Assembly (NCBI GenBank): GCA_041305025.1
Contig: JBFYMG010000057.1
Span: 1 to 58,192, forward strand
Direction: 5' to 3'
Length of the DNA: 58,192 bases
From: Thermoplasmatales archaeon
GTDB taxonomy: Archaea > Thermoplasmatota > E2 > DHVEG-1
Shown: positions 1 to 27,313 of the stretch, piece by piece
Layout of the letters: the number at the start of each line of letters is the position of its first letter
Position numbering within the stretch: position 1 is the stretch's first letter
Notes under the pieces: generated by a model
What the model saw: only the letters and a program-made list of their open reading frames with translations
Databases searched by the model: none
Told to the model about the DNA's origin: nothing
Program-made: the position numbers and the translations under genes

Positions 1-273
1 TGTGACCATTGCATCAACGACCATGTCGCCTCCTGAACCATTATTCCAAATCGTGAAATAGTTGTTGTTTGTTTGTGCTGAGGCATTGGCCCAGACACTA
101 CTGAATGCATAAGAATAAGGGCTTATATCGATTGATGAGTTTCCATCTGGATCAAAAGTTATTGTAACAGTATCTGTAGTATCTGCATATACAATTTCAG
201 ATACTGGTGCAAAAGTTGCAAATGCAATCATGAATACAACTAGACATACTATTAGTACCTTATTTACATCCAT
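1..273 (-). CDS. Small secreted beta-rich protein, putative pilin/filament subunit; 3' end beyond the window edge; paralog of 467..1000
   Basis: Not in the ORF track. Manual translation from ATG at 273: MDVNKVLIVCLVVFMIAFATFAPVSEIVYADTTDTVTITFDPDGNSSIDISPYSYAFSSVWANASAQTNNNYFTIWNNGSGGDMVVDAMVT. It aligns residue for residue with 467..1000 and has the same upstream aaggatgggat element. Confidence 0.9.
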   Translation of the reverse strand, partial: MDVNKVLIVCLVVFMIAFATFAPVSEIVYADTTDTVTITFDPDGNSSIDISPYSYAFSSVWANASAQTNNNYFTIWNNGSGGDMVVDAMVT

Positions 274-466
274 TTTTCATCCCATCCTTTGACTAAATAA
301 AATAATAGAAAAGGTAAGTTAAATGTCTTTTTGGCATCTAATTAAACATCAGGATATGCAGATGCATATGTATACTAAAATACAAATCATAGTAAATAGA
401 AACCTGGGGACTTTATAAAAATTTAAAGAGAATTATGAAGGATAGTTTTACTATATTATTAACTAT

Positions 467-1000
467 TTAAGTTGGTGCAGTGCCGCGGAAAGTTACAACT
501 ACAGTTTGTGAGGTTATGTTCGAAGTGATGTTGGATATAGTTAACCTAAAACCAAAGTTTTGACTGCCTGCAGCACCCCTATCAAGAGCGCTAGAAACCT
601 GGGCCCAATAATGTTCTGAAATATAAGTAGAATTTGTAACAGTACCTCTGCGTATGCGAAGTGAATAGGTATCATCTGTTTGAGTGCCTGTTGCACCGAC
701 TGCGTTATTTAAGCCAAGTGCATCAGTTGTGACTTGTGCATCAACAACACAGTTATCTATAGAGCCATTATTCCAAATAGTGAAATAGTTGTTGTTTGTT
801 TGCTTAGAAGCGTTGGCCCAGACACTACCAAAGGCGTAAGAATAAGGCTGTATATCTATTGATACGTTACCCATTGGATCAAACGTTAAGGTAACAGTAT
901 CGGTAGTACCTGCCAATACGATTTTTGATATTGGTGCAAAAGTTGCAAAAACCATCGTAAATATAACTAGGCATATTATCAATATTTTTTTAGCATCCAT
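467..1000 (-). CDS. Small secreted beta-rich protein, putative pilin/filament subunit (177 aa)
   Basis: Signal peptide ending IVLA, then GTTDTVTLTFDP. Thr/Asn/Ser-rich alternating beta pattern, no C-terminal anchor. The pilin function is inferred. Confidence 0.85.
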   Translation of the reverse strand: MDAKKILIICLVIFTMVFATFAPISKIVLAGTTDTVTLTFDPMGNVSIDIQPYSYAFGSVWANASKQTNNNYFTIWNNGSIDNCVVDAQVTTDALGLNNAVGATGTQTDDTYSLRIRRGTVTNSTYISEHYWAQVSSALDRGAAGSQNFGFRLTISNITSNITSQTVVVTFRGTAPT

Positions 1001-1231
1001 TTTTTATCCCATCCTTTTTACCAATCAACAGTATACAAGATTTATATCTTGTTTCTGTCATTGCATCCCATCATTCTTCTGCTCTCCGCATCACAAATTA
1101 TAATGCATAGAGTGCAACTTTATAATAAAGTAGTGGTTTTTATAAGTTTCGTTTTCTTTGTTATGCTAAATGCGGGAAACGCAAAAGATTTGACAAAACA
1201 AAATATTAAAAAATTTTTTAAGATATTAGTT

Positions 1232-2554
1232 TTATTGTTCTTTTTGATTGTCATTATCAGATATTTTCAGAATTTCATCAACTTTTGAATCTATGTTTTC
1301 TTCTTCATTTTTATTTTCAGGATCTTCTTCCACAAGTATAGTTATCTTGTAACCGTTGGGTAGGAATAGCAATGAAACAATAATTGCAATAATTATTGCA
1401 ATGATTAAAAATAGTAAAAATGGGAATGGCAGCTCTCTTTCTTTTTCGGGTTCCGGTTCCGTGGGTTTCTGCCTATCACTTATTATGGCTTTTGTCGCGG
1501 TTAGATTATTTAGATTGTTGTTGTCTGTTACTTTAAGAATTACAGTATATTCCCCGGGTTTGGCGTACGAATGTATTGGATTTTCTAAATAGGAAATGTT
1601 CCCATCACCGAATTCCCAGAAATAGCTAATTATTAGTCCATCTGGATCGTAGGTGCCTGTACTATTGAAGGTAATGTTTTCATTAGTATATCCGTAATAC
1701 GGGCCATTTACTGCTGGAAGTGTAATATTTTTATTTATATATGTGTAGTAGTAAGAAGCGTTAATTTTTGGTATTGGAAGCTTTAGATTTGGTTCGAGTT
1801 GCATTATGTTTATGATGTATGAAGCTGTAGAGATATCTCCATCATCATCCTTTACATGCAATACTATGGTGTAATTTCCATGATGCTCGTAGCTATAAGT
1901 TATAACTTCGTCTTTTATCCAACCGGTATCAAAAATTGTATCATCTTCAAAGACCCACCGATACTCGTTTATATATCCATCTGAGTCATAGCTGTAAATG
2001 GCATAGAAGACTAGAGTTTCATTTATGTATGCATTATTTGGTCCAGTTATATTGGCTACTGGAGGTTTGTTTGGTTCAATTGGTGGAGCTGGAGGTGATG
2101 GCGGATAAGAGGGTTCTGCGCGAGTGGAAAAACAGAATATAGCTGTTTTAGAATCGTTGCCATCACTTACTATAACCCTCCAATAATACGTCGTAGAATA
2201 ATCTGCTGCCTGAAGATAATTCCAGTGATACGTTCCATTTAGTAATGAGGAATCTGTTTGCCTAAGAACCCAAACTCCCGTTGTATTTTCATACCAGTAG
2301 ATAATAAGGTAATCGTTGTCTGGATCACCAACTGTTATATGACATTTCACTTTTAAATTTACATTTACTGAATTATTTGTTGGATGTTCATTGTCTTGTA
2401 CTACTGGAGATTGATTTGGTATATTGGGATCAAAAGTGAAGCTGACTTGATCGTTAGCTAACACTGTTTGCATGGATATTGGAAAAAGTGTCAAAATGGC
2501 AACTATGATTGCAAAATAGTATGTCTTTACCTTTTTGCCATTCCTTCCTTTCAT
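1232..2554 (-). CDS. Surface protein: signal peptide, Ig-like domain, two PKD domains, C-terminal TM anchor
   Basis: PKD motifs (NKPPVANITGP..YSYDSDGYINEYRW; DPDGLIISYFWEFGDG..HSYAKPGEYTVILKVTD), Pro-rich linker, hydrophobic helix FLLFLIIAIIIAIIVSLLFL and an acidic tail. Confidence 0.9.
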   Translation of the reverse strand: MKGRNGKKVKTYYFAIIVAILTLFPISMQTVLANDQVSFTFDPNIPNQSPVVQDNEHPTNNSVNVNLKVKCHITVGDPDNDYLIIYWYENTTGVWVLRQTDSSLLNGTYHWNYLQAADYSTTYYWRVIVSDGNDSKTAIFCFSTRAEPSYPPSPPAPPIEPNKPPVANITGPNNAYINETLVFYAIYSYDSDGYINEYRWVFEDDTIFDTGWIKDEVITYSYEHHGNYTIVLHVKDDDGDISTASYIINIMQLEPNLKLPIPKINASYYYTYINKNITLPAVNGPYYGYTNENITFNSTGTYDPDGLIISYFWEFGDGNISYLENPIHSYAKPGEYTVILKVTDNNNLNNLTATKAIISDRQKPTEPEPEKERELPFPFLLFLIIAIIIAIIVSLLFLPNGYKITILVEEDPENKNEEENIDSKVDEILKISDNDNQKEQ

Positions 2555-2643
2555 CTCGTTTCCGTCCGTTTTGGTATTTAAGTATATTGATAATCTATAC
2601 CACGATACAATTTGTCACTGTTTGTATTTAAAGGTAATCTGTT

Positions 2644-2674
2644 AAAATGACAGGTTGACAAAATGACAGGCTGA
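2644..2674. repeat. Short direct repeat aaaatgacagg(t/c)tga x2, containing TGACA at 8-nt spacing; possible regulator site
   Basis: Read directly: TGACA at 2648, 2656 and 2664 and TGA at 2672, in the intergenic region upstream of the 1232..2554 gene. Confidence 0.55.
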
Positions 2675-2746
2675 AAAAATTACAAAACAAAAGAGGTAAT
2701 AAAAATACTAATAAAAATTCTTGAAAAAGATAGAATGATACAATTT

Positions 2747-5700
2747 TTATTTTATAATAGATTTGAACGTAACTGTTACAGTCATATTAATATCTGACAT
2801 AGTTGACGCGGTAGCCATTAACATCTTCAAGTCAAAGGTCTGAGTACCGGTTGTCGCAATATTGCTGGAAAAGACAGCGTATGTTTCATTTATATATTTC
2901 CAAGGCTCAGCACCTGTTTTACGTCGAAGGCTGAAATTATTTTCGCTTTGTTCCTGAGTGAGATTCCATGTGAAACCGGTTGAAGAATTGACTGCATCGC
3001 TTGCCTTGATTTGTACACTTACATCAACATTTCCATTGTTAGTAAAAGTAAAATATGAACCAGTTGTCTCGTTTATACCACCTTCCGAGGGTCTTCCGAT
3101 ATCCCACGTTGAAGGTGATACATCACATGATAGAACTGTCCAAGACAAATCTGTACTTTCATAATATTTAATAGTCGTTGAATTAGCATATATAAAAGCG
3201 TATCCAGCATAAGGGCGATTAGTTCCATTGGGATTTTCAGCCCATATCAAATTTGGATAGTAAAAATTATATGCCATACTATATGTAAGATTTGTTGGTT
3301 GATACCATCTCGTTGATTTATACTCACTAAATCGTAGATCAAGAGCCGAGTCACCAGCATATTTCTGACCATACCAAACAACTTTTAAGTCATTAAGTCC
3401 CGTCGTAACAGATATAGAAGGATTATATTGATTGCCAGTGTATTCTGATATGTTATATGGTGCTGACCAAGTTGTTGTTTTTTTGGTATAACGAATCTGA
3501 GTGACAGATCCTCCAGACCACTTTCCATACCAGACAACGTGCAAATAATCATCGCCGTCAATAGCTATACAAGGATAAGTCTGGTCGTTAGAATTAGAAT
3601 CAACAGATATAGTAACAGCTGCACTCCATATTCCTCTTCCGTTTTCAGTACTATAACGTATCTCAATACCGCCTGCTCCACCCATAGTACTATGCCAAAC
3701 CACGTGAACAAAATCGTTAGAATCAATTGCCATGGAAGGAGCAGTGCCAGTTTCAAATAGGCTATAAGTTGTTACATTTGAAGGCCATGACCAAGTCATA
3801 CCACGATTTGTGGAGTTACAATAGCGGATTTCATAATTGGCCCCTGTACCACTATATCTACCATACCAGACCACATGCAGTTTATCTGTACTATCAACAG
3901 CCATACAAGGATACATCTGAGATAGAAGACTGTCCCCCTTTGTTAGATACCTCGTTGTTCCCCAACTCGCACCGCCATCGGTAGAGCGCATATAAGTTAT
4001 CCCGCCATTGCCCGCTCCTCCCCCGCCATCCTTTGAGCTATTAAAGACTACATGTAAGTAATCATAGCTATCTACAGCTATAGATGGGCCTCTATGACTT
4101 ATAGTGGCTGAAGCAGTAAGCGTATATTCAGTCCAGTTTACGCCATCGTCAGTCGATTTGGCACACATAATGTTGCTCGCCCCTCCATAGGTTCTGTTGT
4201 AAACACAATATAGATAGCCGTTGGAATCTCTAGCCAATTTTCGTTGACCAGGATATTGCAGGCTAAGACCAGTTGGTGAAGTGTCTAATTTAACGGTATA
4301 CCCCATCGTGAAACTGTATGTAGTATAATTTGTATTAGTTCCATCTGAAAGAGTCACGCGCCAATAATATATAGTTCCAAAATTACTGTAGTTTGTGTTG
4401 GTTTGCCTTACTATTGTTCCTGTTTCATTTTCGATTTTGACTGTACATGACCATCCATCATGACCTGTTCCAACCCATGCGATGTAATAGAAATCGCTTC
4501 CCATTGAGACCATCGGAGCAAAACCCATATTATCCGTTGAATCAAACTCCAAGGAATCGTATTCAATGTCAGGAATTTGGCCATCGTCTTTAATTTTTAT
4601 TGTTTTCATCCAGCCATCACCGTCTGTTCCCTGATATGTTATAACATAGAGATTATTTTCTAGCGATGAAATAAATGGATACGCACAATCTGCAGTATCA
4701 AACTCAAGTGTTCCACCTGAAAACCAAGATTTTGTTATTGCACCTGCGTCTGAAATTCTAGTAGTATTGCATCTACCATCACCGGCAACGTCACGATATG
4801 CAATTGCAAAACAGTTTGAACTTCCTAATTTTTTTATAAAAGGATATGACACTTGTGTGTCAAATGTCCACGAATCAACATAAGCACCGCCAATATTGCC
4901 TCCAGAATCAATATCGTATGTTGTAAGATAGCCGTAATTGGTTCCTCGATCATTATAAACTATTGCAACCGTATCTGAATCAACCATACACATTCTTGGG
5001 TATACGCCTTCAATAGCTCCATTAACAGCCTGAATATCAATAGGACCATTAATAGTAATTTTATTATCGACAGTAAAGGTTTCTAAATATAAACGTCTAC
5101 CCGCCGAATCAGTGTGAGCAACAACAAAAGTATTTCCAGTGACACGAACTACATCTATTCTAGTTTGCTCAGATCCGGAAGAAAAATATGTTAAAGTTAG
5201 AGAGGCGCCAATAGATTTTGTTATAATTCCTGTTGTTGAAATATCAACTGTTATTACAGTATCCCTAGAAGTTACGTTATTATAATAAACAATAATATAT
5301 GTGTTATCACCCCAATACAGTATTCTTGGATATGACCCACCTTTTGTATCAAATGTATAAGAATCTACACAACTACGATTGACGGAACCATTGCTATTCC
5401 AGACCTTAGTTGTATTAATCAAGCCTTTGCTACCAATTCCACAATTGACAATTGCATAATATGAAAATGTTGCGTCCGATCCAACTTTTATAACATCAGG
5501 ATATTCGCCCCACTGCTTATTGTATTCCCGTGAACTGGTTACAGATGTATTTATCGCACCGTAACTCATCACTTGATTGGTCGCACTTGACCTATTAGCA
5601 CCGAATTGAACCCAAGAACCACTTGAATTTGATGACCATGTAACATTTAACATATCACCGATGTCTGAAACAGTCACACTCAATTGCACTGGTGCAGTAA

Positions 5701-8700
5701 CTCCAGTAGCGCCATCTGCCGGAGAGGGATTTGAGATTTGTGGAACCTGGTTTGCATAAATCTGATAAGTACAAGCCCAACCATCAGTATTCGGACCTGA
5801 GTATACTGTCAAGAAATAATTTCCTGCACAATAGATTGTAGCCGGTCTTGTATAACAGTCGGTACTAAAGGTTAGCGTATCTATTACTGTTCCACTATAT
5901 GCACCAAGACCATACGTGTTTATTGCCATGGTAACAGTTACGCCATCTGAAGCACTATTTCGATAGGATATTCCATAGATAGCACGATCTGCAGCTGAAC
6001 TGTACGAAACATTAAAAATATATGGATAATAAACGGTGTCACTGCCAGCAAACTCAAGAGTCCCGCCTGAAACCCATGACTTAGTAATAGCACCTGCACC
6101 TGAAATTTGAGTGATATTACATCTACCATCTGAATCAGAATCAACGTATGCGATTGCAAAAAAGTAAGTATCTACTACAAAAGAAGAAGTGCCTACTTTT
6201 TTTATGAAAGGATAATAAGCATTGTAGCGGTCAAATTCCCAACTACTTGTATTTGATGCAGCAATAGTACCAGTTGCTGTTATGTCACGAGTGCCCATAT
6301 GTCCGTCTGTGTTCTTACCAGAATAAACCCACACAAATGTGTTTGAATCCACTGCTTCCAAAGTTGCTGTAGGCATTTTTGAAATCGTATTGTCAATTGT
6401 GACATTTCCTAGTGCCGTTATTACCCCGGCATTTGTTATGTTATATGATTTTAACCTAAAATAATATGCATAATTACAATATGCAATAACAAAGATATTT
6501 GAAGTTGTACTTACTCCCATCTTTAAAACTGACGTTATGTTTGCGCCATTTAGTGTTTTACCCAAATACTCAGACCTTACATCACCACTAATCTTGGATT
6601 GCTGTATAGTTCCGTTTGTATCCCAGACTCTGAATGTAAAAGCATATATGAAACGCCCAACATTATTCGGGCCACCATTACAATAGAAACAAGCATAGAT
6701 GTTTCCATAGACCTTTTGAACAAATATCGAACCAACCGCGTTCGTCGTGGTGTTGAACGTCCATGATGATACGTTTGTTGAACGGATCGTACCATTGTTG
6801 TTCCATACTCTTATTGTATTCAATGAACCATGAAAATTTGTGGTTCCTGCACCTATAAGATAATATTCACTGTTGTTTACTCGTACTGCTGATACGTTCT
6901 TCCCAGTCTGTGGATTCCATTCAAATGAACTTGTAGTTTGGTCTGCGATAAGACCATAGGTAGGGTCAAGTTCGATATGCGTACCAAAAGGAATGTTATT
7001 TCTTTGTATTCTGAATTGGAATTTGCCGTCAATAATATTATTGTCAAATGACAGTCCTGAAAGCCTAGATACATCGCTGTAATCGTATCTAAGAGTAAAC
7101 TGATGATCAAACGCTGTATATTTTATATCAAAAGTTTTACTATCATCGTCATAACTATAATCATCAACAGGAATATCTATTGTAAGAGTAAGACTATAAT
7201 TTGCACGAGGATTAACAGTTGCAGTAAAATCAAGAGTGAATTTCTTTGATTTTTCTGTAACGTCTTTGTAGTTTATGGTCAAGCCGCCAACATCTTCCCA
7301 TTGGTCATTAATATGTGCTTGTAAATTCCATACAGTATGACCAAAAAGATAAACCCATGCTTTTTGATAATTCATCTTTGACGAAATAAACGAACCGGCT
7401 TGGCCTGTCTTTTGTTCCCAAAAATCATCATAAATTTTTGTTGTAATATTTGTATTTGTTTTAGCATTCGCACTTGCATAGTCATCTGACCATTGTTGTA
7501 AAGTTCCCCATGTCGTATAACTCCATGCCACATAATAATAGTTTATTGACTGACTCAGTCTGGTGTCAGAGTATTTCTTCTCTGTACCATCATATACTAA
7601 GGCACCATCATTTCTATTAGTTGGATATGAGCCAATCTTACGAACAATATATGTATTGTTTGCACCAACACCTTTACTCCACGATAAATCAATTCTTGAT
7701 TCGCCAAAAGTTTTTGCAAAAAAGTCGGTTGGTTGCAGTGGTTTAGGTAAAGAGGTATTAGTTTCTGTTTCACCTCCAGTACTTTCATTGGTGCTTTCTT
7801 GTTCTGAGACATCGCATTCACTAATCATACTTTTATTTTCATAACCAACAGCAGAACAAGATACGTTATATTCGTAGATTCCACTTTTATCAAAAGATTT
7901 ACTATAGATGTATAAATTGTTTGCATAGTCCATAATTACTGGTTCGGTCCAACCTTCCTCGTTGAAAGAGATAAGGCACACAGCATTTTCGATACTTTGA
8001 TTAAAACTACTATAATCGGCATAAAACGTTATCATATCATTTGCATATCTCTTTTCATAATCTGTATCATCCCAAATAATTAGATTCGAAACAATAGTCT
8101 CGTTTGTTGTTTCGTTATCATCATTTTCAGGTGGAATTGTTTCATTCGAAGGCGGTATAGTCTCATTCGAAGATCCATTTTCGAATATCGGAACATCAGA
8201 ATTAGCAGTTCCTCCAGTCTCATTTTTTATATCATCCAGAGGCAAAACGCTCCAATCAATCATCGAACTATATTGTGTTTTGTTTGCATCTATTGCTTTG
8301 ATAGTTGCAAAATATTCACCTGCCTTTGCATCACGAACAACCCACTTTGCCTGCCATAACTTATCATTAGTAGAATTGTCAGCTAACGACAAATCTATAG
8401 TTTCAATGCCGCCCATATCGGCAGTGACTGAGCGGACATTGTTGGAGGCGGGAATTGTTACATTTATGAATATTGTATCGCCATCGTGAACGCTTTGCGA
8501 AGAAAAAGAAATAGAAACACCTGAATTTTCATCATTACCATACAAGTATGGCAAGCTAGAAGGAATTACAACAAAGATCAAAATAAAGGACAATATTACT
8601 GCCAAAATCTTTCTTGAGGGCAACTTTTTTTTATATATTTTGAGAGAGTTCTTAGTTATTGCCTCTCTAAAAATTTCATCTGAGGATTTCTTTTTTTCAA

Positions 8701-8824
8701 ATTTTGCATCTAATTTAGAACATTCATTCTTAGATATAGCATCATCAACTAGAATATTTATATCATCAACTAATTCAGCAAGTTTTTTTTGTTCTTTTTC
8801 TGTTAGAGTTTTATCTGAAAACAC
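2747..8824 (-). CDS. Giant multidomain surface protein/adhesin (2025 aa): N-terminal TM/signal, Ig-like, FN3, two repeat propeller-like regions, BNR/Asp-box propeller, C-terminal pilin-like domain
   Basis: TM segment ILAVILSFILIFVVIP. FN3 motif (PTDFFAKTFGESRIDLSWS..YYYVAWSY). Asp-boxes KSTDDGVNW, RSTDGGASW, NSTNRGMTW. Internal duplication. GTG start preceded by ggggag. Confidence 0.88.
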   Translation of the reverse strand: MFSDKTLTEKEQKKLAELVDDINILVDDAISKNECSKLDAKFEKKKSSDEIFREAITKNSLKIYKKKLPSRKILAVILSFILIFVVIPSSLPYLYGNDENSGVSISFSSQSVHDGDTIFINVTIPASNNVRSVTADMGGIETIDLSLADNSTNDKLWQAKWVVRDAKAGEYFATIKAIDANKTQYSSMIDWSVLPLDDIKNETGGTANSDVPIFENGSSNETIPPSNETIPPENDDNETTNETIVSNLIIWDDTDYEKRYANDMITFYADYSSFNQSIENAVCLISFNEEGWTEPVIMDYANNLYIYSKSFDKSGIYEYNVSCSAVGYENKSMISECDVSEQESTNESTGGETETNTSLPKPLQPTDFFAKTFGESRIDLSWSKGVGANNTYIVRKIGSYPTNRNDGALVYDGTEKKYSDTRLSQSINYYYVAWSYTTWGTLQQWSDDYASANAKTNTNITTKIYDDFWEQKTGQAGSFISSKMNYQKAWVYLFGHTVWNLQAHINDQWEDVGGLTINYKDVTEKSKKFTLDFTATVNPRANYSLTLTIDIPVDDYSYDDDSKTFDIKYTAFDHQFTLRYDYSDVSRLSGLSFDNNIIDGKFQFRIQRNNIPFGTHIELDPTYGLIADQTTSSFEWNPQTGKNVSAVRVNNSEYYLIGAGTTNFHGSLNTIRVWNNNGTIRSTNVSSWTFNTTTNAVGSIFVQKVYGNIYACFYCNGGPNNVGRFIYAFTFRVWDTNGTIQQSKISGDVRSEYLGKTLNGANITSVLKMGVSTTSNIFVIAYCNYAYYFRLKSYNITNAGVITALGNVTIDNTISKMPTATLEAVDSNTFVWVYSGKNTDGHMGTRDITATGTIAASNTSSWEFDRYNAYYPFIKKVGTSSFVVDTYFFAIAYVDSDSDGRCNITQISGAGAITKSWVSGGTLEFAGSDTVYYPYIFNVSYSSAADRAIYGISYRNSASDGVTVTMAINTYGLGAYSGTVIDTLTFSTDCYTRPATIYCAGNYFLTVYSGPNTDGWACTYQIYANQVPQISNPSPADGATGVTAPVQLSVTVSDIGDMLNVTWSSNSSGSWVQFGANRSSATNQVMSYGAINTSVTSSREYNKQWGEYPDVIKVGSDATFSYYAIVNCGIGSKGLINTTKVWNSNGSVNRSCVDSYTFDTKGGSYPRILYWGDNTYIIVYYNNVTSRDTVITVDISTTGIITKSIGASLTLTYFSSGSEQTRIDVVRVTGNTFVVAHTDSAGRRLYLETFTVDNKITINGPIDIQAVNGAIEGVYPRMCMVDSDTVAIVYNDRGTNYGYLTTYDIDSGGNIGGAYVDSWTFDTQVSYPFIKKLGSSNCFAIAYRDVAGDGRCNTTRISDAGAITKSWFSGGTLEFDTADCAYPFISSLENNLYVITYQGTDGDGWMKTIKIKDDGQIPDIEYDSLEFDSTDNMGFAPMVSMGSDFYYIAWVGTGHDGWSCTVKIENETGTIVRQTNTNYSNFGTIYYWRVTLSDGTNTNYTTYSFTMGYTVKLDTSPTGLSLQYPGQRKLARDSNGYLYCVYNRTYGGASNIMCAKSTDDGVNWTEYTLTASATISHRGPSIAVDSYDYLHVVFNSSKDGGGGAGNGGITYMRSTDGGASWGTTRYLTKGDSLLSQMYPCMAVDSTDKLHVVWYGRYSGTGANYEIRYCNSTNRGMTWSWPSNVTTYSLFETGTAPSMAIDSNDFVHVVWHSTMGGAGGIEIRYSTENGRGIWSAAVTISVDSNSNDQTYPCIAIDGDDYLHVVWYGKWSGGSVTQIRYTKKTTTWSAPYNISEYTGNQYNPSISVTTGLNDLKVVWYGQKYAGDSALDLRFSEYKSTRWYQPTNLTYSMAYNFYYPNLIWAENPNGTNRPYAGYAFIYANSTTIKYYESTDLSWTVLSCDVSPSTWDIGRPSEGGINETTGSYFTFTNNGNVDVSVQIKASDAVNSSTGFTWNLTQEQSENNFSLRRKTGAEPWKYINETYAVFSSNIATTGTQTFDLKMLMATASTMSDINMTVTVTFKSIIK

Positions 8825-8977
8825 CAGTTACTCCCCATCTACGCCTTCTAGTAGTACAGTATACTAATAAATAATTAGTTTTTAAGGTTTACCAACAATA
8901 TAAAATAAGAAAGATGACCAACATTCTAAAAACGATAACTTAATCAATACATTTCATGATTTTCCGCTCGGATTTCA

Positions 8978-9226
8978 ATGTTTGAAGCTAAAGTAAAAAT
9001 CGGACTTAAAAAAGGCGTTTCAGATCCTGAAGGAGCAAATACACTAAAGGCCTTACATCTGTTAGGTTTCAACACAGTAAAAGAAGCAAAGACCATCAGA
9101 ACTATTGATCTTTTAATCGATGGTAAAAATGAGAACGAAGTGAAAAAGAAAGTAGAAGAGATGTGCCAAAGATTGCTAACAAACCCAGTTATCCATACAT
9201 ATGAAATAGAAGTGAAAGAAAAATAA
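8978..9226 (+). CDS. purS: Phosphoribosylformylglycinamidine synthase subunit PurS
   Basis: KKGVSDPEG and LLTNPVIHTY motifs, 82 aa, directly upstream of purL. Confidence 0.95.
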   Translation: MFEAKVKIGLKKGVSDPEGANTLKALHLLGFNTVKEAKTIRTIDLLIDGKNENEVKKKVEEMCQRLLTNPVIHTYEIEVKEK

Positions 9227-9253
9227 GAAATACTGCTTGGGGAGTGTAAAAAC

Positions 9254-11605
9254 TTGAATCTAGAAAGTCTATTTGAAAAAAAGAATGTACCTTTTAATCT
9301 GCATGACGTAGATCTTTTTTCTGCTACAGACGAGCAACTCAAAGAAATCAGCAACAAGATGGGACTGGCACTCGCCCTTGATGAAATGAAACGTATAAAA
9401 AAATACTTCCAGGACAAAAACCGTTTACCAACTGAAGTAGAGTTGCAGGCACTTGGTCAGGCATGGTCTGAACATTGCTGTTATAAATCCTCAAAAATTC
9501 CATTGAAAAAATATATCTATGGCGTTGCAGAGGACAAAATTGCCGCTCGTGAAGACGCAGGCGTTATAGAGTTTGATGATGATTATTATTACTGCGTAAA
9601 ACTTGAATCACACAATCATCCTTCAGCAATTGAGCCATATGGTGGTGCTGCTACAGGCATTGGTGGAGTTGTTCGAGATGTAGTCTGCATGGGCTCTCAA
9701 CCAATCGCTTTTTTAGATCCTTTATTTTTTGGTCCTTTAGATTATCCGGTAGAAAAATTACCGAGAGGAGTAAAGCATCCTCGTTTTTTATTCAAAGGTG
9801 TTGTTGATGGCATACGTGATTATGGAAATCGAATCGGAATTCCGACACTAGCTGGGTCCGTATATTTCCATGAAGGCTACTTGGGCAACTGTCTTGTTAA
9901 CGTTGGCTGCATTGGAATACTTAAGAAAAGTGAACTTATCCACAGCAAAGCCAAAGCACCTGGAAACATCTATGTTTACGTTGGTGGGAAAACAGGCAGA
10001 GATGGAATTCATGGAGTAACCTTTGCATCAGCAGAGTTAACAGACGAGAGTGAGGAAAGCAGCAGATCGGCAGTACAAGTCGGAGATCCCATTACAAAAG
10101 AACCGGTCATTCATGCAACACTAGAATGCAACGGAAAAGGATTACTAGAGGGACTTAAGGATTTTGGTGGTGGCGGACTATCTTGTGTTTGCGGGGAACT
10201 AGCTTACGAAGCAGGTTTTGGAGCTGAAATAAATCTTGACGATGTACCATTAAAAGAAGAAGGGCTCTCACCATGGGAGATATGGGTGTCTGAAAGCCAA
10301 GAACGAATGATGCTCATGGTTGATCCGAAAAACGTTGAAAAAGTGCTTCACATCTGCAAACAATGGGATGTTGCCGCAGTACCAATTGGTAAAGTAATAA
10401 AAGAAAAAATAACGCGTGTTTTTTACAAAGGAAACAAAATTCTTGAGATGGATATGGACTTTTTAACTGGTGGTCCTGTCTACGATAGTTGCATTAGACC
10501 GGTTGTTCTACCAAAACCAGATGAAAAAGAAAAAGATTTTACAATGCCTGATCCAAACAGTATGTTAAAGAAGCTGCTTAGTTCACCAAACATTGCATCA
10601 AAAGAATGGGTGATACGTCAATATGATCATGAGGTACGAGGTAACACAGTAATTAAACCGCTTCAAGGTAAAATAAGCACTGAGACGCACGGTGACGCGG
10701 CTGTCGTAAAACCTCTTGAGGGCTCTTTCAAAGGAATTGCAGTCACCGCTGATGTTAACCCAAGTTTCATGGAAAAAGATCCGTACTGGGGTGCATGTGC
10801 TGCGGTTGATGAAGTTTGCCGAAACCTTGTCTCAGTCGGTGCTAGACCTGATTCACTTTTAGATTGTTTAAATTTTGGAAATCCTGAAAAACCTGAGCGA
10901 ATGGGAGAGTTTTATGAAGCTTGTCGAGGACTAGGCGATATGGCAAAACCACTTCACATGCCGTTTGCATCTGGAAATGTGAGTTTTTATAACGAATCCC
11001 TTGCATCATCTGTTCCACCAACGCCTGAACTCATGGGAATTGGCATAGTGCCTGATATCAGAAAGTGTGTTACTGTTGATTTCAAAGAAAAAGGAAATCC
11101 GACATACTTGGTTGGAAAGGCAACCGAGAAAGAACTGGGTGGCTCTGAGTATTATAAAATGCAAGGAGTTGGCGGTGGAAAGGTTCCGCGCACAGATGTG
11201 AAACTATTGAAAAAATGTATAGATGGAATTCTATCTGCAATTGATAAGGCATACATTGCTTCATGCCATGATATAAGTGAAGGTGGATTAGCAGTCTGTC
11301 TTTCTGAAATGACAATCGGTGGAGATATTGGTGCAGAAATAGACATATCAAAAATAGGAGACAAGTTACGAACGGATTTCAAACTCTTTTCAGAATCAAA
11401 CACAAGATGGATCGTGGAAGTTAAAAAAGAAAAACAAAAAGATTTTGAAAAAATCCTGGAAAAGAAAAATACACCGTTTATACAAATCGGTGAAACCAAT
11501 GGAAAAAATCTAGTGATAAAAGACAACAAAAAAACAGTGGTTGATCTTGACGTAAAAGTTCTGCGAGACTGCTGGAAAAATCCAATCTGGAACATCATGG
11601 GTTAA
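9254..11605 (+). CDS. purL: Phosphoribosylformylglycinamidine synthase subunit PurL
   Basis: WSEHCCYKSS, KLESHNHPSAIEPYGGAATGIGG, DFGGGGL, SESQERM and SGNVSFYN motifs. Confidence 0.97.
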   Translation: MNLESLFEKKNVPFNLHDVDLFSATDEQLKEISNKMGLALALDEMKRIKKYFQDKNRLPTEVELQALGQAWSEHCCYKSSKIPLKKYIYGVAEDKIAAREDAGVIEFDDDYYYCVKLESHNHPSAIEPYGGAATGIGGVVRDVVCMGSQPIAFLDPLFFGPLDYPVEKLPRGVKHPRFLFKGVVDGIRDYGNRIGIPTLAGSVYFHEGYLGNCLVNVGCIGILKKSELIHSKAKAPGNIYVYVGGKTGRDGIHGVTFASAELTDESEESSRSAVQVGDPITKEPVIHATLECNGKGLLEGLKDFGGGGLSCVCGELAYEAGFGAEINLDDVPLKEEGLSPWEIWVSESQERMMLMVDPKNVEKVLHICKQWDVAAVPIGKVIKEKITRVFYKGNKILEMDMDFLTGGPVYDSCIRPVVLPKPDEKEKDFTMPDPNSMLKKLLSSPNIASKEWVIRQYDHEVRGNTVIKPLQGKISTETHGDAAVVKPLEGSFKGIAVTADVNPSFMEKDPYWGACAAVDEVCRNLVSVGARPDSLLDCLNFGNPEKPERMGEFYEACRGLGDMAKPLHMPFASGNVSFYNESLASSVPPTPELMGIGIVPDIRKCVTVDFKEKGNPTYLVGKATEKELGGSEYYKMQGVGGGKVPRTDVKLLKKCIDGILSAIDKAYIASCHDISEGGLAVCLSEMTIGGDIGAEIDISKIGDKLRTDFKLFSESNTRWIVEVKKEKQKDFEKILEKKNTPFIQIGETNGKNLVIKDNKKTVVDLDVKVLRDCWKNPIWNIMG

Positions 11606-17741: not shown

Positions 17742-20207
17742 ATGGCTGAGATTAATAAGAAAAACGACCAACCACGCGATATTAACGAGGAAATGAAACG
17801 TGCTTTTATTGATTATTCCATGAGTGTGATTATGAGCCGGGCTCTTCCGGATATTCGTGATGGGTTAAAACCGGTTCATCGAAGAATTTTACATGCGATG
17901 AACGAAATGGGAATGGGCTATGAGAAATCATATAAGAAATCTGCTAGAGTAGTTGGAGAAGTGCTCGGTAAGTACCACCCGCATGGTGACCAAGCTGTGT
18001 ATGATTCGCTAGTTCGAATGGCTCAGGATTTCTCCTTACGATATCCATTGATTGCTGGTCAAGGTAATTTTGGTTCGGTTGATGGGGATTCCGCTGCTGC
18101 CATGAGATATACAGAAACAAAAATGGCAAAGATCACAAAACTGATGCTGCAGGATATCGAAAAAGAGACAGTGGAATGGCGTGATAATTTTGATGGCACC
18201 TTAAAAGAACCTGAGGTTCTTCCAGCGAGCTTACCAAATCTTCTCGTAAATGGATCATCCGGTATCGCGGTTGGTATGGCCACTAACATGGCACCCCACA
18301 ACATCTCCGAGGTTATTGATGGCATCATCCGAATGATCGATACCCCTGAGGTCTCAACAACAGAGTTAATGGATATCATCAAAGGCCCTGATTTTCCCAC
18401 GGGTGGAATTATCTATGGTCGTGGTGGAATCCTTTCTGCATATTCCACGGGACGCGGCTCACTTGTTGTCCGTGCGAAAACTTCCATTGAGGAAGGCGAA
18501 CAAAAAAATAAAATCATTGTTCATGAGCTGCCGTATCAGGTTAATAAATCTGTTCTTCTGCAAACAATCGCTGAGCTTGTCAAAGATAAGAAAATCGAGG
18601 GCATTTCTGATCTTCGTGATGAAAGTGATAGAAAAGGCATGCGTATTGTCATTGAGCTGAAACGAGACGCTATCGATGATGTTGTGTTGAATCAGTTGTT
18701 TGAACATACTGAGTTACAATCTTCATTTGGTGTGTTGAATCTTGCGATTGTCAAAGGCGAGCCAAAGGTTCTGATGCTCAAAGAAATCATTCAGCACTAC
18801 ATTGAGTATCGGATTGAAATTATCACCCGGCGAACAACATATGATCTGAAGAAAGCCAAAGAGAAAATGCATATCCTGGAAGGCCTTGTGATCGCCCTGA
18901 AGAATATCGATGAAGTCATTAAGATCATCCGGCAGAGCAAAGAAGTTGATGAAGCAAAAGATCGGTTGATGAAACGCTTTAAGCTATCTGAAATCCAAGC
19001 AAAAGCAATTCTTGACATGAGATTACAGAAATTGACTGGAATGGAGATAGAATCATTAGAAAAGGAGTACGAAGAGACAAAACAACTCATTGAACAATTG
19101 GAAATTTTACTTCATGACAAACAGAAAATATTGGCCGAAATTAAAAGAGAATTGCTAGAATTAAAAGAGAAGTTCGGTGACGCAAGGAGAACACAAATCG
19201 TAGAAGGAGAAGTAGGCATTGAAATAGAAGATCTTATACCAAAACAAGAAGTCGTCGTAACAATTACTGACAGTAGTTACATAAAACGTATTCCGGTCGA
19301 AACATACCGAACGCAACATCGTGGCGGAAAAGGACTCATGGGCATGGAAACGAAAGAAGAAGACATCGTTGTTGACTCATTCATCACTTCAACACACGAC
19401 TACATCATGTTTTTCACAAATTACGGTAGAGTTTACTGGTTGAAAGGATACAAAATCCCTGAGGGGAGCAGACATGCCAAAGGTAAAGCAATAATAAACT
19501 TACTACCGCGACTGGAAGAGGGAGAATACGTCGAAACAGCCATACCAATCCACGAGTTTGACGATAAACACTACCTTGTTTTTGTAACCAAGAAAGGCAT
19601 AATCAAAAAAACCACCCTTTCAGAGTATGGCAATATCCGAGTCAACGGAATCCGAGCGATTAATCTAGAGGAGGGCGACGAATTAATTAGTACCAAACTA
19701 TCAAATGGAGACCAGATCATTATGATTGCAACTGCAAACGGCCAAGCATGCAGATTCAATGAAACAGAAGCACGATCCATGGGACGAGTGACACATGGAG
19801 TTATAGGAATAAGACTCAATAAAGGAGATAAAGTCGTCTCCATGGAAATTGTTGAAAAAGACGGAGGAGATTTGCTAACAATTACTGAAAACGGCTTTGG
19901 AAAACGATCTGCAATCCAAGACTATCGGATGACACATAGAGGCAGCAAAGGCGTAAAAACAATTGTCACAAATAAACGAAATGGACAAGTCATATTTGTA
20001 CGAGAAGTCACTGATGCTGATGAAATTATGTTAACGAGCAAGAACGGCATGATGGTACGGGTTCCCGTTAAGGACATCAGGAAGCAGGGCAGAAACACCA
20101 TGGGCGTAAGAATTATGAGGCTTAACGAAGGAGATAGAGTAGTTTCAGTTGCAAAAATAATAGAAACAGCAGACGATAATAAAAATGAGGAGAATATTGA
20201 AGGTTAG
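17742..20207 (+). CDS. gyrA: DNA gyrase subunit A
   Basis: [31 protein letters not shown] (catalytic Tyr), GyrA-box QHRGGKG and C-terminal pinwheel repeats. Confidence 0.97.
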
Positions 20208-20381
20208 ATAATTTATCAATGATTCGCTGAAGAATCATTTAATAGCTTTTATTATTTTTAACTTTATTTATCATGGTCACAATAAATAGAATGTTTACCA
20301 AAGACCATTACAATAAAGTTGATGCTCTTTGCTTTAAAAAAACAAGCGTTCTCATTAAAAGTTATGTTGGTAAATGTTAAT

Positions 20382-20948
20382 TCAGTATTTTTTAAAGCCA
20401 ATCCAACGTGGAGTTTTCTTCGTATAATTTTTGTATTTTTCGCCATATTTTTCAAGGCAAAATTTTTCTTCGTATTTAACAAATAAAACTATAATTATCA
20501 TATAGACAAACGTTATTATTAGAAAAATCCAGGAGTTTGATATCAATCCTATTCCAATATACGCAAAGAAAAATGAGAGATACATCGGATTTCTTGAGTG
20601 TTTATACATACCTGTCGTCACAAGTTCATCTGCCGGTGTTTTTATCCAGCTTATACAAGCACTGCTAACAATAATTATTCCGATAGCCCATAAAACAATT
20701 CCTAAATAGAAAAAAATCGAATCAAAAACTATTGGTAAGAAAAAACTTAAAATAATTGCAAGTATAAAAAAAATTGAGGAAAGGTCATATATAAATCTAA
20801 AAAAACCATCTCTTTTAATTTTTTTTTTGGATGAATCTTCTGGCCTATTCTTTTTTTTATAAACAAAAGGAAGAATTGTTATTATAAGATAAACTATGAG
20901 CAAGATATATGCGTTTATTAAACCTAATTCAAAGTTATTATATATCAA
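20382..20948 (-). CDS. ICMT/PEMT-family membrane methyltransferase
   Basis: LVTTGMYKHSRNPMY and EE..C...YG..Y..Y...TPRW motifs, multiple TM helices, TTG start after aaggtt. Confidence 0.88.
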   Translation of the reverse strand: MIYNNFELGLINAYILLIVYLIITILPFVYKKKNRPEDSSKKKIKRDGFFRFIYDLSSIFFILAIILSFFLPIVFDSIFFYLGIVLWAIGIIIVSSACISWIKTPADELVTTGMYKHSRNPMYLSFFFAYIGIGLISNSWIFLIITFVYMIIIVLFVKYEEKFCLEKYGEKYKNYTKKTPRWIGFKKY

Positions 20949-21310
20949 TTTTTAACCTTGCTTTATTTTTTATATATTTTGTTTTCCCCAGCATATACTA
21001 ACGTTAATTATAAATAATTACCCTTTCAGCATCTCCTAAAATTATTTCTGTTTCATTTTTTATAAAATCCTTTGTAAAAAATTTACAGTTTTTATAAAAT
21101 ACAACTTTATCTGATTCATATACTGGTTTTTCATATCGAATTTTTTAGTTTAATCATTAACGGGTATTCTTCCAATTTATTTAGAACAACCTGCAATAAA
21201 CCCTTTTGTTTTTTGTCTTTATTGAAAAAAGGAGTGAAAATAAAAAAAAGTAAGATTATTTTTGATACGGTTAAATAAAGAAATAAATTAGAGTTGTTTT
21301 TTATTTTCAA

Positions 21311-21337
21311 CCAGTTGGTTAGCAATTACCCAACTGG
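21311..21337 (-). terminator. 8-bp stem-loop overlapping the stop codon of the precursor ORF (terminator or stabiliser)
   Basis: ccagttgg (21311-18) is the exact reverse complement of ccaactgg (21330-37), with an 11-nt loop. Confidence 0.5.
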
Positions 21338-21412
21338 ACACTCTGGAACATGTAGAGATCCGTATGTTATTTCCTTATTTACAGATTTCATTTTTGGTTT
21401 CGTGTATTTCAT
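21326..21412 (-). CDS. Putative RiPP precursor peptide, 28 aa: MKYTKPKMKSVNKEITYGSLHVPECPVG
   Basis: Manual translation. SD-like aggttgat just upstream, own BRE/TATA, YxxP motif in a Lys-rich leader, and location inside the rSAM/PqqD cluster. Confidence 0.8.
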   Translation of the reverse strand: MKYTKPKMKSVNKEITYGSLHVPECPVG

Positions 21413-21448
21413 TTTTTATCAACCTTATTAATTTTATATGTTTTTCTT

Positions 21449-21465
21449 TATATAAATAGTTTTCC
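21449..21465 (-). promoter_or_regulatory. Archaeal BRE/TATA promoter for the precursor ORF
   Basis: The minus strand reads GGAAAACTA-TTTATATA, ending 37 nt upstream of the ATG at 21412. Confidence 0.6.
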
Positions 21466-21506
21466 TTACATTTATTACCACATTTATAGACGATTTAGAA
21501 AATTAT

Positions 21507-22520
21507 TCAGATAAACTTTCTATAACTTAGATCTTTTAAAAACATTATTATTTGTATAATGAGAAATACGGTAGGTATTATCGACATTGTTAGAAATGAT
21601 AAAGAAGAATATACGAAAAATGGCCACAACATCGTTGAAATTGGAAGGAAAAAATTTATGTTTTTTTGTCTTAAATCAAAATCTTTTATTTTCTCATGTC
21701 TTAACCATAAAATCATAAGAACTGGAAACACCACTAGAAAGGAAAAAGTAATAATATCTAAATAAAAATTATAAACACATAAAACTAATAACAAAATCCA
21801 TAAGATAATAGCTACATGAATTGTCCAGTTATAGCCAAGTATCACATTAGTGGGTTTTATTCCAAATTCCTCATCTGTTTTAATATCCCGCCAACTGATA
21901 ATTAAAGTATAAGAAATGACGGGGATGCCCATTATCAATCCAAGAGCGAAAATATCCATACTTAGCTTCGCTCCAGTAGTCAACCATCCTAAAACAAAAG
22001 GTAAAGAACCGAAAATTAACATGTTTGAAATCATGTCTATCAGTGGTTTGGTTTTAAATCTAACAGGAGGTGCAGAATACGAAAATGTGATAATAACAAG
22101 AATCAAACCCACAATAAAAAGTGTAAAATCAAAATAATACCATAGAAAATATAAACCAATAAAAGAACAAATAATTGATGATATAAACATTTCTTTATCT
22201 GAAATATATTTGAATACCCACACATTATGTTTTCTTGCAAATATATCAAGTTTTTTATCAAATAAAAAATTAGTAAAGCCACTAATAAATTCAGCCAATA
22301 TTAGAAAAAATATCATTATCAAAGTAGGATAAAACAAAAAATCTTTTATTGCCCACCATTCTCCCAGCAACAAAAATGAAATAGTAATAGGAACTGTTGG
22401 AATGCGGGAGGCAATAAGATAAGCAAGAAATTTTCTTTTTAAATAGTTTAAGCGTGGATTTTTGATATTTTTATCGTCGAATTTTTTTCCCCAATAAAAT
22501 TCTTCGAAATTTTTAACCAT
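21507..22520 (-). CDS. UbiA-family prenyltransferase (copy 1)
   Basis: NFLFDKKLD and DIKTD Asp-rich motifs, YSAPPVRFKTKP, about 9 TM helices. Confidence 0.9.
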   Translation of the reverse strand: MVKNFEEFYWGKKFDDKNIKNPRLNYLKRKFLAYLIASRIPTVPITISFLLLGEWWAIKDFLFYPTLIMIFFLILAEFISGFTNFLFDKKLDIFARKHNVWVFKYISDKEMFISSIICSFIGLYFLWYYFDFTLFIVGLILVIITFSYSAPPVRFKTKPLIDMISNMLIFGSLPFVLGWLTTGAKLSMDIFALGLIMGIPVISYTLIISWRDIKTDEEFGIKPTNVILGYNWTIHVAIILWILLLVLCVYNFYLDIITFSFLVVFPVLMILWLRHEKIKDFDLRQKNINFFLPISTMLWPFFVYSSLSFLTMSIIPTVFLIIQIIMFLKDLSYRKFI

Positions 22521-22597
22521 ATGAATCAGCCGTTTTTTTTTCTTTCATGCAATACTTTTTAAGCTTTTTATACTTACTAAAATATTGAACAGATATT

Positions 22598-23638
22598 ATG
22601 AATAATAGTGCCACAGCAGATTCGTATAGTAATGACATAAACATTGACGGTTTTAAAATAAGAATAGATGATTTTATAGAAGAAAGAATACTTCCGGATT
22701 ATTTCAATTCACCCTTTATTGGACAATGGGAAATTACAAGAGAATGCAACCTTAGATGCATATTTTGTTATAACAATTCCGGAGAAAAACTACCTAATGA
22801 ATTAACACACAAACAAAAAATAAACGTTGCAAAACAGATTGTGGGGGAAAAAATATATCGAATGTGTATAAGCGGAGGAGAACCAATTCTTTGCGAGTCT
22901 TTTTGGGATATCGCTAAAATTTTAAAACAAGGAAAAATCTTCTGCAATACCATAACTAATGGATGGTATGTCAGCGAAGAAAATGCATCTTTATATGCCA
23001 AATATTTTAAAAATATTCAGATCAGTTTAGATGGCAGAAAAAAAGAGACGCACGATAAACTACGGGGTAAAAAAGGTAGTTGGGAAAAAGCCGTTAATGC
23101 CTGTAAACTAATCAAAGATAATGGAGGAAAAATATCAATTGCAACAGTTGTAACTCCAATTAATCTACATGAGATTGAAGAATTAATTGATTTTTCATAT
23201 AGCATGGGTGCAATGGATATAAAACTTGAGGAAGTGATATTTACAGGTAGGGCATCAAACATAACTTATGATATTTCTTTATCTGAAAAACAATCATCTG
23301 AACTAGCAAAAATAATAAAACATAAAAAAAATGAATACAATGAAAAATTGTTTAATGTCGATATCGTACCTAAGACTCAATATAATTATGTTAGGGGTTT
23401 TACAAAAATCCCGCCAGTCTCAATATATATTTCGCCAACTGGCACATGCGCAATCGACCCGGTTCTTCCTTTCTCGGGTGGTTCTTTAAAAGAAAAAAAT
23501 CTAAAGGAAATTTGGAGCAACCTTAAAAAAATTCATAAAAATAAAGATTTCATAAATTATTCACTGAAAGTAAAAACAGGAAAAGATTTTAAAAATATTG
23601 ATAATATCCCTTACTTCAATGGTGAATTACATGATTGA
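22598..23638 (+). CDS. Radical SAM enzyme, PqqE/MftC-like peptide-modifying type, with a degenerate SPASM/twitch tail
   Basis: WEITRECNLRCIFC, ISGGEP, TITNG, QISLDG..HD..RG..GSW; overlaps a PqqD gene. Confidence 0.9.
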   Translation: MNNSATADSYSNDINIDGFKIRIDDFIEERILPDYFNSPFIGQWEITRECNLRCIFCYNNSGEKLPNELTHKQKINVAKQIVGEKIYRMCISGGEPILCESFWDIAKILKQGKIFCNTITNGWYVSEENASLYAKYFKNIQISLDGRKKETHDKLRGKKGSWEKAVNACKLIKDNGGKISIATVVTPINLHEIEELIDFSYSMGAMDIKLEEVIFTGRASNITYDISLSEKQSSELAKIIKHKKNEYNEKLFNVDIVPKTQYNYVRGFTKIPPVSIYISPTGTCAIDPVLPFSGGSLKEKNLKEIWSNLKKIHKNKDFINYSLKVKTGKDFKNIDNIPYFNGELHD

Positions 23639-23924: not shown

Positions 23925-23930
23925 AAACAA

Positions 23931-24908: not shown

Positions 24909-25007
24909 TAGTTTTTTACTTAAATAACTTATCTTAAGTTCGAAATTTTGTATAATTCAAAAAGTGTATAAACTTTAATAGTAAGATAGAATATTATATC
25001 GCTAGAG

Positions 25008-26276: not shown

Positions 26277-26307
26277 AAAATAGTTAACTAGATCAGTAGG
26301 AATAAAC

Positions 26308-27168: not shown

Positions 27169-27313
27169 TTTTTTAATATCGTTGGTTGTTTTGTCGAAAG
27201 ATTTTTTATTATTTTATTAAAAAAATTATCTTTTCATTTTAAAAAACATAGATTTGATGTTTTAAAAACGTTAATAAATATATTACACATTATAAAGGCG
27301 GAGGCAAATAAGT

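Follow-up and report, generated by a model that had tools for sequence, protein, structure and literature searches.

The 58,192-nt contig JBFYMG010000057.1 of a Thermoplasmatales archaeon (assembly GCA_041305025.1), analysed over its full length and called the window hereafter, begins with four genes encoding exported proteins: a giant surface protein, a protein with PKD domains and a transmembrane (TM) helix, and two small proteins designated pilin 1 and pilin 2. An earlier note on this DNA read them as the operon of a filament polymerised by donor-strand exchange (DSE), in which the N-terminal strand of one subunit is inserted into the next. The genes and the elements within them are as follows (aa, amino acids).

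2747..8824, minus strand: giant surface protein, 2025 aa, candidate tip or adhesin
8735..8764, minus strand: cytoplasmic motif INILVDDAI of the giant (aa 21-30)
8540..8608, minus strand: hydrophobic segment of the giant (aa 73-95), preceded by a 72-aa N-terminal extension and running into LPYLYG, then ND
2750..3133, minus strand: C-terminal pilin-like domain of the giant (aa 1898-2025), without TFDP strand, candidate acceptor-only domain
1232..2554, minus strand: PKD/TM protein, 440 aa, candidate donor-only membrane anchor
2426..2455, minus strand: N-terminal extension NDQVSFTFDP of the anchor (aa 34-43), preceding its first Ig-like domain; anchor peptide NDQVSFTFDPNIPN
1358..1432, minus strand: TM helix of the anchor (aa 375-399), read from the sequence
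1268..1297, minus strand: motif NIDSKVDEIL in the cytoplasmic tail of the anchor (aa 420-429)
467..1000, minus strand: pilin 1, 177 aa, with a Sec-type signal peptide (aa 1-30), an N-terminal strand, a beta-sandwich body and 6 N-glycosylation sequons
875..910, minus strand: N-terminal strand GTTDTVTLTFDP of pilin 1 (aa 31-42), candidate donor strand
1..273, minus strand: pilin 2, first 91 aa only, cut by the end of the window
148..183, minus strand: candidate donor strand DTTDTVTITFDP of pilin 2

The four genes are co-directional, as had been claimed, but they are separated by ~190-230 bp, so that neither their operon status nor their co-transcription is established. The four parts are present in the window but do not make up the whole set, since the cluster runs on past the end of the window.

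The PKD/TM protein and both small proteins share a predicted beta-strand motif directly after signal peptide cleavage. Among all window open reading frames (ORFs) of at least 90 aa (20,564 residues), TFDP occurs three times compared with 0.14 occurrences expected. It always falls at residue 39-40, is found only in these three adjacent genes and lies 6-9 residues past the predicted cleavage site, which follows VLA and precedes GTTDTVTLTFDP in pilin 1, follows VYA and precedes DTTDTVTITFDP in pilin 2, and follows VLA and precedes NDQVSFTFDP in the PKD/TM protein. In the pilins, the strand spans ~12 residues with the alternating hydrophobic pattern h-T-h-T-F-D-P (h, hydrophobic). The common strand pointed out in the earlier note is thus confirmed by its frequency and its fixed position.

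The giant ends in a domain related to the body of the small proteins, in which this strand is missing. Its last 128 residues (aa 1898-2025) align to residues 46-172 of pilin 1 with 30% identity (BLASTP E=1e-7), the alignment beginning directly after the ...TFDPMGN of the pilin, and the family profile matches the same domain at E=1.4e-42, which turns the resemblance noted before into homology. The giant also carries 56 N-glycosylation sequons and three Asp-box motifs (S-x-D/N-x-G-x-x-W) at aa 1557-1678.

The pilins match no significant family in Pfam or NCBIfam (window proteins), in Pfam (68 family members) or in two PDB profile searches. A word-indexed search with the small protein returned three relatives only, while an exhaustive profile search with the pilin family returned 363 cluster representatives at E<=1e-3. 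The class counts given here cover the 152 listed family members matched by the profile. Small proteins of ~160-185 aa, consisting of a signal peptide, an N-terminal strand and the body, account for 73 of them, with h-x-h-x-h-x-P found in 67 of the 73 and F[DN]P in 41. In another 71 members, other sequence precedes the domain, which in 68 cases ends at most 4 residues from the C-terminus. The profile match in these large members mostly begins at or just past the strand position, and F[DN]P is present upstream of the domain in a single one, P0027, a pilin with a long N-terminal extension. As far as these sequences tell, the division between a strand followed by a body and a strandless body at the C-terminus of a large protein is a family-wide rule and not an oddity of the window.

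The PKD/TM protein is composed, in order, of a signal peptide, the N-terminal strand, an Ig/FN3-like domain, a Pro-rich linker, two PKD domains (identified by Pfam within its 440 aa), the TM helix and an acidic cytoplasmic tail. A homologue search with its first 170 aa found no relatives, and its homologues were taken from related loci retrieved via the cluster. These loci are numbered with the prefix L below, and proteins with the prefix P. The N-terminal strand is kept in 8/8 loci, i.e., the window and the seven related genes recovered. It reads QVSFTFDP in the window, QINLSFDP in L004, EITLGFKP in L006, QIIVSFDP in L010, QIIVSFNP in L011, QISISFDP in L012 and QIGLTFAP in L014; the motif is therefore present in anchor homologues. 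In the L004 anchor, each of the Ig/FN3-like modules begins at P-x-I-x-x-x-P-x-N-x-S, which places the strand outside the first domain and makes it a true N-terminal extension. It can be added, as an anecdote, that L011 has TFNP in the pilin and SFNP in the anchor while the similar cluster of L010 has FDP in both, a single parallel difference of D to N.

The same gene order is found in CP070836 (the chromosome of a Thermoplasmatales metagenome-assembled genome, MAG; L006), in CP070798 (L010), in CP070724 (L011) and in the metagenomic loci L012 and L013. A large protein with the C-terminal domain is followed by the PKD/TM protein and one or two pilins, then by an Ig+TM protein (~200-250 aa), a ~60-aa protein, a beta-helix protein and a second Ig+TM paralogue. 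The ~60-aa protein resembles a ribbon-helix-helix (RHH) protein in L002, and the beta-helix (NosD)/TSP3/TM protein is ~720 aa long. Locus L013 deviates from this order, its C-terminal-domain protein being small (263 aa) and its sole PKD protein lying downstream of the cluster. On the short contigs nearest to the window (L001-L003, with pilins 50-81% identical), the pilin gene or genes are followed by the Ig+TM gene. Tandem duplicates of the pilin gene are present in the window, in L002 and in L014. The window PurL clusters at >90% identity with a protein of a 'Euryarchaeota archaeon' MAG, and in the close relative L014 (positions 1-2700; PurL >90% identical), purS is directly followed by the anchor gene (SDQIGLTFAP) and two tandem pilin genes. 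The parts are hence kept together as a syntenic cluster in Thermoplasmatales MAGs.

The earlier note listed a candidate adhesin, anchor and pilins, but the most telling part was absent from that list, as it lies past the end of the window. Seven distinct loci extend far enough to show the gene next after the pilin gene or genes (read at L001, L002, L003, L006, L007, which is duplicated on contigs L008 and L009, and L010-L013). In every one of them, the encoded protein has a signal peptide, a single Ig-like domain and a TM helix at its C-terminus. Its absence from the window is very probably due solely to the contig breaking off within pilin 2. The AlphaFold2 (AF2) model of the L002 orthologue, P0154, has a predicted local distance difference test (pLDDT) score of 87.8 and consists of one beta-sandwich and a helix at residues 177-205. 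Foldseek returned 172 PDB matches for this model at E<=1e-3, and the top matches, at ~1e-7, are the chaperones of chaperone-usher pili Caf1M, FimC, CsuC, PapD, SafB, FaeE, SfaE, DraB and YadV, to which ~135 columns align at 3-5 Å. Eukaryotic PapD-like/ASH domains are also among the matches. A basic residue in the last (G) strand, within the motif ExAV[RK]h[YF]IxTP, is found in 69/71 members and resembles the FimC G1 strand ISRIKLYYRP; in the A strand, a basic residue is less common (~50/71). Two PapD-like paralogues per cluster are encoded in L006 and L010-L013. The protein has no match in Pfam, NCBIfam or a PDB sequence search, and all named members of this Ig+TM family come from Thermoplasmatales MAGs or single cells from sediments.

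Two further observations were made at other loci. In L007 (7766-12919, also L008 and L009), a distant archaeal cluster encodes a pilin and a PapD-like/TM protein with a CxxC...CxxC insertion, together with several proteins that carry 1-4 tandem copies of a different strand, DTEYFDLGVNVTL, after the signal peptide. One of them, of 207 aa, has three DTEYFDLGVNVTL copies directly before a pilin-like body, and four of the multi-strand proteins end in a common h-h-I-I-P-N-P-G...W motif. These proteins could be multivalent donors, and their shared end could be a C-terminal signal. In L005 (830-1104), an AT-rich stretch downstream of the pilin gene is full of degenerate AATATGAATCATATA repeats.

The mature pilin, modelled by AF2 from a 68-sequence alignment, is an eight-strand sandwich (pLDDT 94.5) in which residues 1-17, the strand included, are assigned to no sheet. 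The strand is thus kept outside the sheet of its own monomer in the model; a strand folded back into that sheet would have spoken against the earlier note. Searched against the PDB with Foldseek, the pilin model gave nothing below E=1e-3. Among the top 50 matches, all weak (TM-scores ~0.26-0.55), 36 are DSE subunits, a count inflated by the redundancy of the PDB in chaperone-usher pilins. They comprise Pyrodictium cannulae, CanA, Hyper2, AbpA, TasA and the Sulfolobus 0406 thread, as well as FimA/F/G/I, PapA/E, CsuE, SafA, CfaB, MyfA and PsaA. The best of these matches, themselves weak, are the cannulae 9h8b (E=3e-3, TM-score 0.47), Hyper2 9bab (TM-score 0.53), AbpA 7ueg, TasA 8aur and the thread 7pnb, and the Fim, Pap, Csu and Saf pilins follow at E 0.02 to 0.2. 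Foldseek thus sets the pilin model beside TasA, AbpA and chaperone-usher pilins, if only weakly. Multi-repeat proteins of the type ...DFG.V.VG....FT..N.G...L (P0099, P0129, P0140 and P0146) match the N-terminal half of the pilin body, and their sequences hint at a common origin of this body and the PapD-like domain in the ASH/HYDIN-type Ig class.

A last shared element is found on the cytoplasmic side. The regular expression (D/N)(I/V)(D/E)xx(V/I)Dx(L/I)(L/I) has 7 matches in 68.7k residues (242 ORFs), all of them in cluster proteins: at the N-terminus of giants and in the C-terminal tails of the anchor, of beta-helix/TM proteins and of one PapD-like protein. In relatives, proteins with the motif are encoded at 11720-13918 in L006, at 7804-9975 in both L010 and L011, and at 3478-4209 and 4758-6848 in L013. 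Complete giants of the family typically have a ~60-110 aa N-terminal extension before the hydrophobic segment, and the strict form (D/N)(I/V)(D/E)xx(V/I)DxhL precedes the TM segment in 15 of the 20 complete giants. The sharing of this motif argues that the N-terminus of the giant is a functional cytoplasmic element, and the common VDxLL-type sequence hints at a cytoplasmic organiser that would co-localise the parts. By sequence, the hydrophobic segment at aa 73-95 could be either a signal-anchor or an extended signal peptide. It is directly followed by a conserved LPxLYG[DN] (window 8527-8545, giant aa 94-99; P0052, P0059, P0076 and P0104), which could be a processing site deciding whether the giant remains membrane-anchored. 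The suggestion of a filament tethered at both ends is thereby favoured by the cytoplasmic motif but put in doubt by this possible cleavage site.

Taken together, the strand-exchange reading is supported, every refuting condition of the earlier note that was checked having turned out in its favour, and it can be extended. What lies in the window is probably the proximal portion of a conserved cluster with which these archaea would make a surface fibre or tether by donor-strand complementation, without an usher and probably with the help of membrane-anchored PapD-like proteins. The gene and domain architecture, the conservation of the strand across the family and its absence from C-terminal domains, the synteny and the folds are observations, whereas we infer the insertion of strands, the subunit order, a chaperone role and the length of a fibre, along the following lines. 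All components would be exported by Sec. The pilin body, Ig-like or jelly-roll, would receive the N-terminal strand of the following subunit. The giant, having a body but no TFDP strand, could only accept and would form the first, distal adhesin end, whereas the PKD/TM protein, having only the strand followed by spacer domains and a TM helix, could only donate and would cap the last pilin and tie the assembly to the membrane. Single-domain PapD-like TM proteins, one or two in number, would keep subunits at the outer side of the membrane after their export, until exchange takes place.

Other routes of export and assembly were considered and rejected. A type IV pilin is rejected, since the hydrophobic segment belongs to an ordinary signal peptide that is cleaved off ahead of a beta-strand, with no class III signal. 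Tat export is rejected for the lack of a twin arginine in the signal peptides, and sortase, archaeosortase or type V assembly because the pilins have no C-terminal sorting signal and no lipobox.

Several observations weigh against assembly by strand exchange. The AF2 pilin is a confident eight-strand sandwich unaided, and the predicted open groove is not evident from the monomer. Its Foldseek matches are all weak (best E=3e-3), in a PDB with many redundant chaperone-usher pilins. The N-terminal half of the body has a faint sequence likeness to ASH/HYDIN/'choice-of-anchor D' Ig repeats, which are complete, non-polymerising domains. In addition, the comparison of the PapD-like family with FimC by hhalign is not significant (probability 2%), PF00345 is not matched, and the protein consists of one domain and a TM helix rather than two domains. 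In some large proteins, a strand upstream of the C-terminal domain (TTIKYY, NKITIAE) could complement it in cis. Finally, L014 has no giant gene between purS and the anchor, which implies that the adhesin gene is variable or located elsewhere. The reading is most at risk from the possibility that the pilin-like domain is complete as an Ig domain by itself and that the strand serves another role.

This risk corresponds to a first rival explanation, namely that no strand exchange takes place. The cluster would then encode independent Ig-like surface glycoproteins, the strand being a signal for processing, glycosylation or sorting, or simply a first strand or linker, and the PapD-like proteins would be generic surface domains of the MSP/ASH type. 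The confident monomer, the ASH/HYDIN-type likeness and the E-values of the pilin Foldseek matches, every one above 1e-3, are what such proteins would give, and the PapD-like fold also occurs in the non-chaperones OCRL, CEP192 and hydin. We nevertheless consider this explanation unlikely because it does not account for the missing TFDP-type motif in the homologous C-terminal domain of 68 large proteins, for the strand being the only element kept in an otherwise unrelated TM protein in 8/8 loci, or for the strict adjacency of pilin-like and PapD-like folds. Moreover, we know of no archaeal signal-peptidase determinant located 6-9 residues past the cleavage site.

A second alternative accepts strand complementation but replaces the long filament with a short stoichiometric tether, in which the strand of the anchor, directly or via 1-2 pilin spacers, plugs into the C-terminal domain of the giant. 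As the giant would also be held in the membrane by its N-terminal TM segment, the assembly would form a loop on the surface with both ends fixed, or else bridge cells. The cytoplasmic motif common to the giant, the anchor and the beta-helix/TM tails fits a functional, membrane-embedded N-terminus, carriers of the C-terminal domain (71) are about as numerous as small pilins (73), and each locus has only 1-2 pilin genes. However, tandem pilin duplication (window, L002 and L014) is expected of a major subunit, LPxLYG[DN] could be the site of a releasing cleavage, and L014 has an anchor and pilins without an adjacent giant. Such a tether is, on balance, improbable. A third explanation, a self-assembling fibre of the TasA-superfamily type in which the PapD-like/TM and beta-helix/TM proteins have no role in assembly, would suit the presence of CanA, Hyper2, AbpA, TasA and the 0406 thread among the top Foldseek matches and the fact that the archaeal DSE filaments described so far are all chaperone-free (PMC12518558), but it appears quite improbable, as none of the 68 family members matches Peptidase_M73 (Pfam PF12389) even at E<=1, the clusters have no signal peptidase I gene, and a PapD-like gene directly follows the pilin gene or genes in every locus readable there.

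The surroundings of the cluster hold other genes of possible interest. Two Peptidase_C25 (gingipain-family) genes, one with a C25 propeptide, are located in the window at 27314-29818 (plus strand) and 30596-33520 (minus strand). In three related loci, a C25 gene adjoins the pilus cluster or lies within ~4 kb of it (L010 10645-13566, L011 10646-13546 and L013 11042-12856). Gingipains mature type V pilins in Bacteroidia, and such protein-degrading sediment archaea have been reported to share extracellular C25 peptidases as a general trait. A role of these neighbours as pilin maturases was not adopted, no conserved basic (Arg/Lys) cleavage site being seen in the pilins. Positions 20001-28000 have a GC content of 0.28 compared with ~0.37 elsewhere in the window and encode two UbiA prenyltransferases, a radical SAM protein, a C39-like peptidase and an LCM-type methyltransferase; this region may be an acquired island or a lipid/peptide-modification cassette. 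No Rfam RNA family matches the window.

PapD-type chaperone-assisted pilus assembly has been regarded as a feature of diderm bacteria, and the archaeal strand-exchange fibres described so far are chaperone-free or have no known chaperone. Literature searches brought up no pilus described from archaea that is PapD-like or chaperone-assisted. The cluster is best described as an archaeal variant of usher-free, chaperone-associated DSE assembly, made of unannotated protein families. The stronger claim, that the Thermoplasmatales group of archaea, marine-sediment lineages included, has a genuine DSE pilus that is assisted by a chaperone, needs no usher and parallels the chaperone-usher and Pam pili, is put forward tentatively, with slightly less than even confidence. 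If true, the module of chaperone and strand exchange would predate the outer-membrane usher or be more mobile than it, it would not be confined to bacteria, and chaperone-usher and Pam pili would be evolutionarily linked to the archaeal system or strikingly convergent with it. The cluster would then represent a fifth, mechanistically distinct class of archaeal fibre beside bundling pili, threads, cannulae and Tat-fimbriae. It would also give a function to several hundred unannotated proteins of abundant uncultured sediment archaea, among them adhesins of >2000 aa, and a testable model for the tethering of giant proteins to the archaeal cell.

Among the known systems, type V pili of Bacteroidia differ in their mode of assembly. 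Their lipoprotein precursors lose an N-terminal strand by gingipain-type removal and polymerise by exchange of a C-terminal strand, so that their listing in the earlier note among pili that insert an N-terminal strand was inexact. In contrast, a lipobox Cys is missing from the archaeal signal peptides, and it is an N-terminal strand that is conserved. Members of the TasA superfamily (TasA/TapA, AbpA, AbpX, CanA/CanX and the Saci_0406 thread) share Sec export, the N-terminal strand and a jelly-roll/Ig-like body with the archaeal proteins. TapA has been proposed to nucleate or anchor TasA fibres via a TasA-like N-terminal strand, which is analogous to the archaeal anchor. Unlike in this superfamily, PapD-like proteins are present in the archaeal cluster and an acceptor domain is fused to giants. 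With the family profile, no TasA, AbpA or CanA PDB chain was matched at E<=10. The archaeal DSE fibres known so far, i.e., archaeal bundling pili (ABP), threads, cannulae, AbpX and Tat-fimbriae, are members of the TasA superfamily or similar to it and were described as chaperone-free, and a frequent adjacency to a signal peptidase I (SipW-type) gene is a feature of this superfamily (PMC12518558). Neither the cluster of the window nor those of L006 and L010-L013 have such a gene. The haloarchaeal Tat-fimbriae, or Tat-dependent bundling pili, are strand-donation fibres with several subunit types (PMC11821415, PMC12337348). They use the Tat pathway and occur in another lineage, whereas the signal peptides of the present cluster look Sec-type and lack a twin arginine.

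There are several parallels with chaperone-usher pili (Fim, Pap, Caf and Csu). They include the N-terminal donor-type strand with alternating hydrophobic residues, the strandless pilin domain at the C-terminus of an adhesin and an accessory protein of PapD-like fold (Foldseek ~1e-7) whose last strand carries a basic residue that is conserved. However, archaea of this group have a single membrane, and the archaeal system has neither usher nor periplasm; the window and the syntenic clusters of L006 and L010-L013 contain no usher-like gene. The chaperone-like protein is single-domain and membrane-anchored, whereas the chaperones of chaperone-usher systems have two domains (PF00345/PF02753) and a conserved Arg8/Lys112 pair. 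The base would be a donor-only TM anchor and not a terminator subunit. No similarity at the sequence level was detected, the comparison of the pilin family with FimA by hhalign being likewise not significant.

The closest known system is the Pam pilus of bacteria of the Candidate Phyla Radiation (CPR), solved by cryo-electron microscopy in Ca. Mycosynbacter amalyticus and described in a 2026 preprint that extended chaperone-assisted assembly to CPR; in its proposed set of parts, a strandless tip protein, PamT, is followed by DSE pilins (bioRxiv 10.64898/2026.03.03.709456). PamC and PamD are PapD/FimC-like proteins with a C-terminal TM helix, PamR combines an N-terminal strand with FnIII domains and a C-terminal TM helix, and the Pam pilins were called exclusive to CPR (bioRxiv 10.64898/2026.03.03.709456). 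The archaeal proteins differ from this system in more than their host, which belongs to another domain of life. Pam pilins have two domains (an N-terminal sandwich, a linker donor strand and a truncated Ig C-terminal domain) while the archaeal pilins have one, with the strand at the mature N-terminus. Similarly, PamC and PamD have two domains and the archaeal PapD-like protein one. The archaeal acceptor domain is fused to adhesins of up to ~3200 aa, and the cluster adds a beta-helix/TSP3/TM protein and a small RHH protein. The pilins have no NCBIfam Pam match, and the anchors match the NCBIfam PamR profile (NF058578) at 13-30.5 bits (E 1.6e-7 to 0.033, profile positions 204-290), far below its cutoff of 300 bits, and hence are not PamR members. 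Nevertheless, the two systems have the same outline: a single-membrane cell without an outer-membrane usher, export by Sec and membrane-anchored PapD/FimC-like proteins with a C-terminal TM helix. They would also have in common, as judged on the archaeal side from genes and models, a strandless tip, pilins joined by DSE and an anchor made of a strand, FnIII-type domains and a TM helix.

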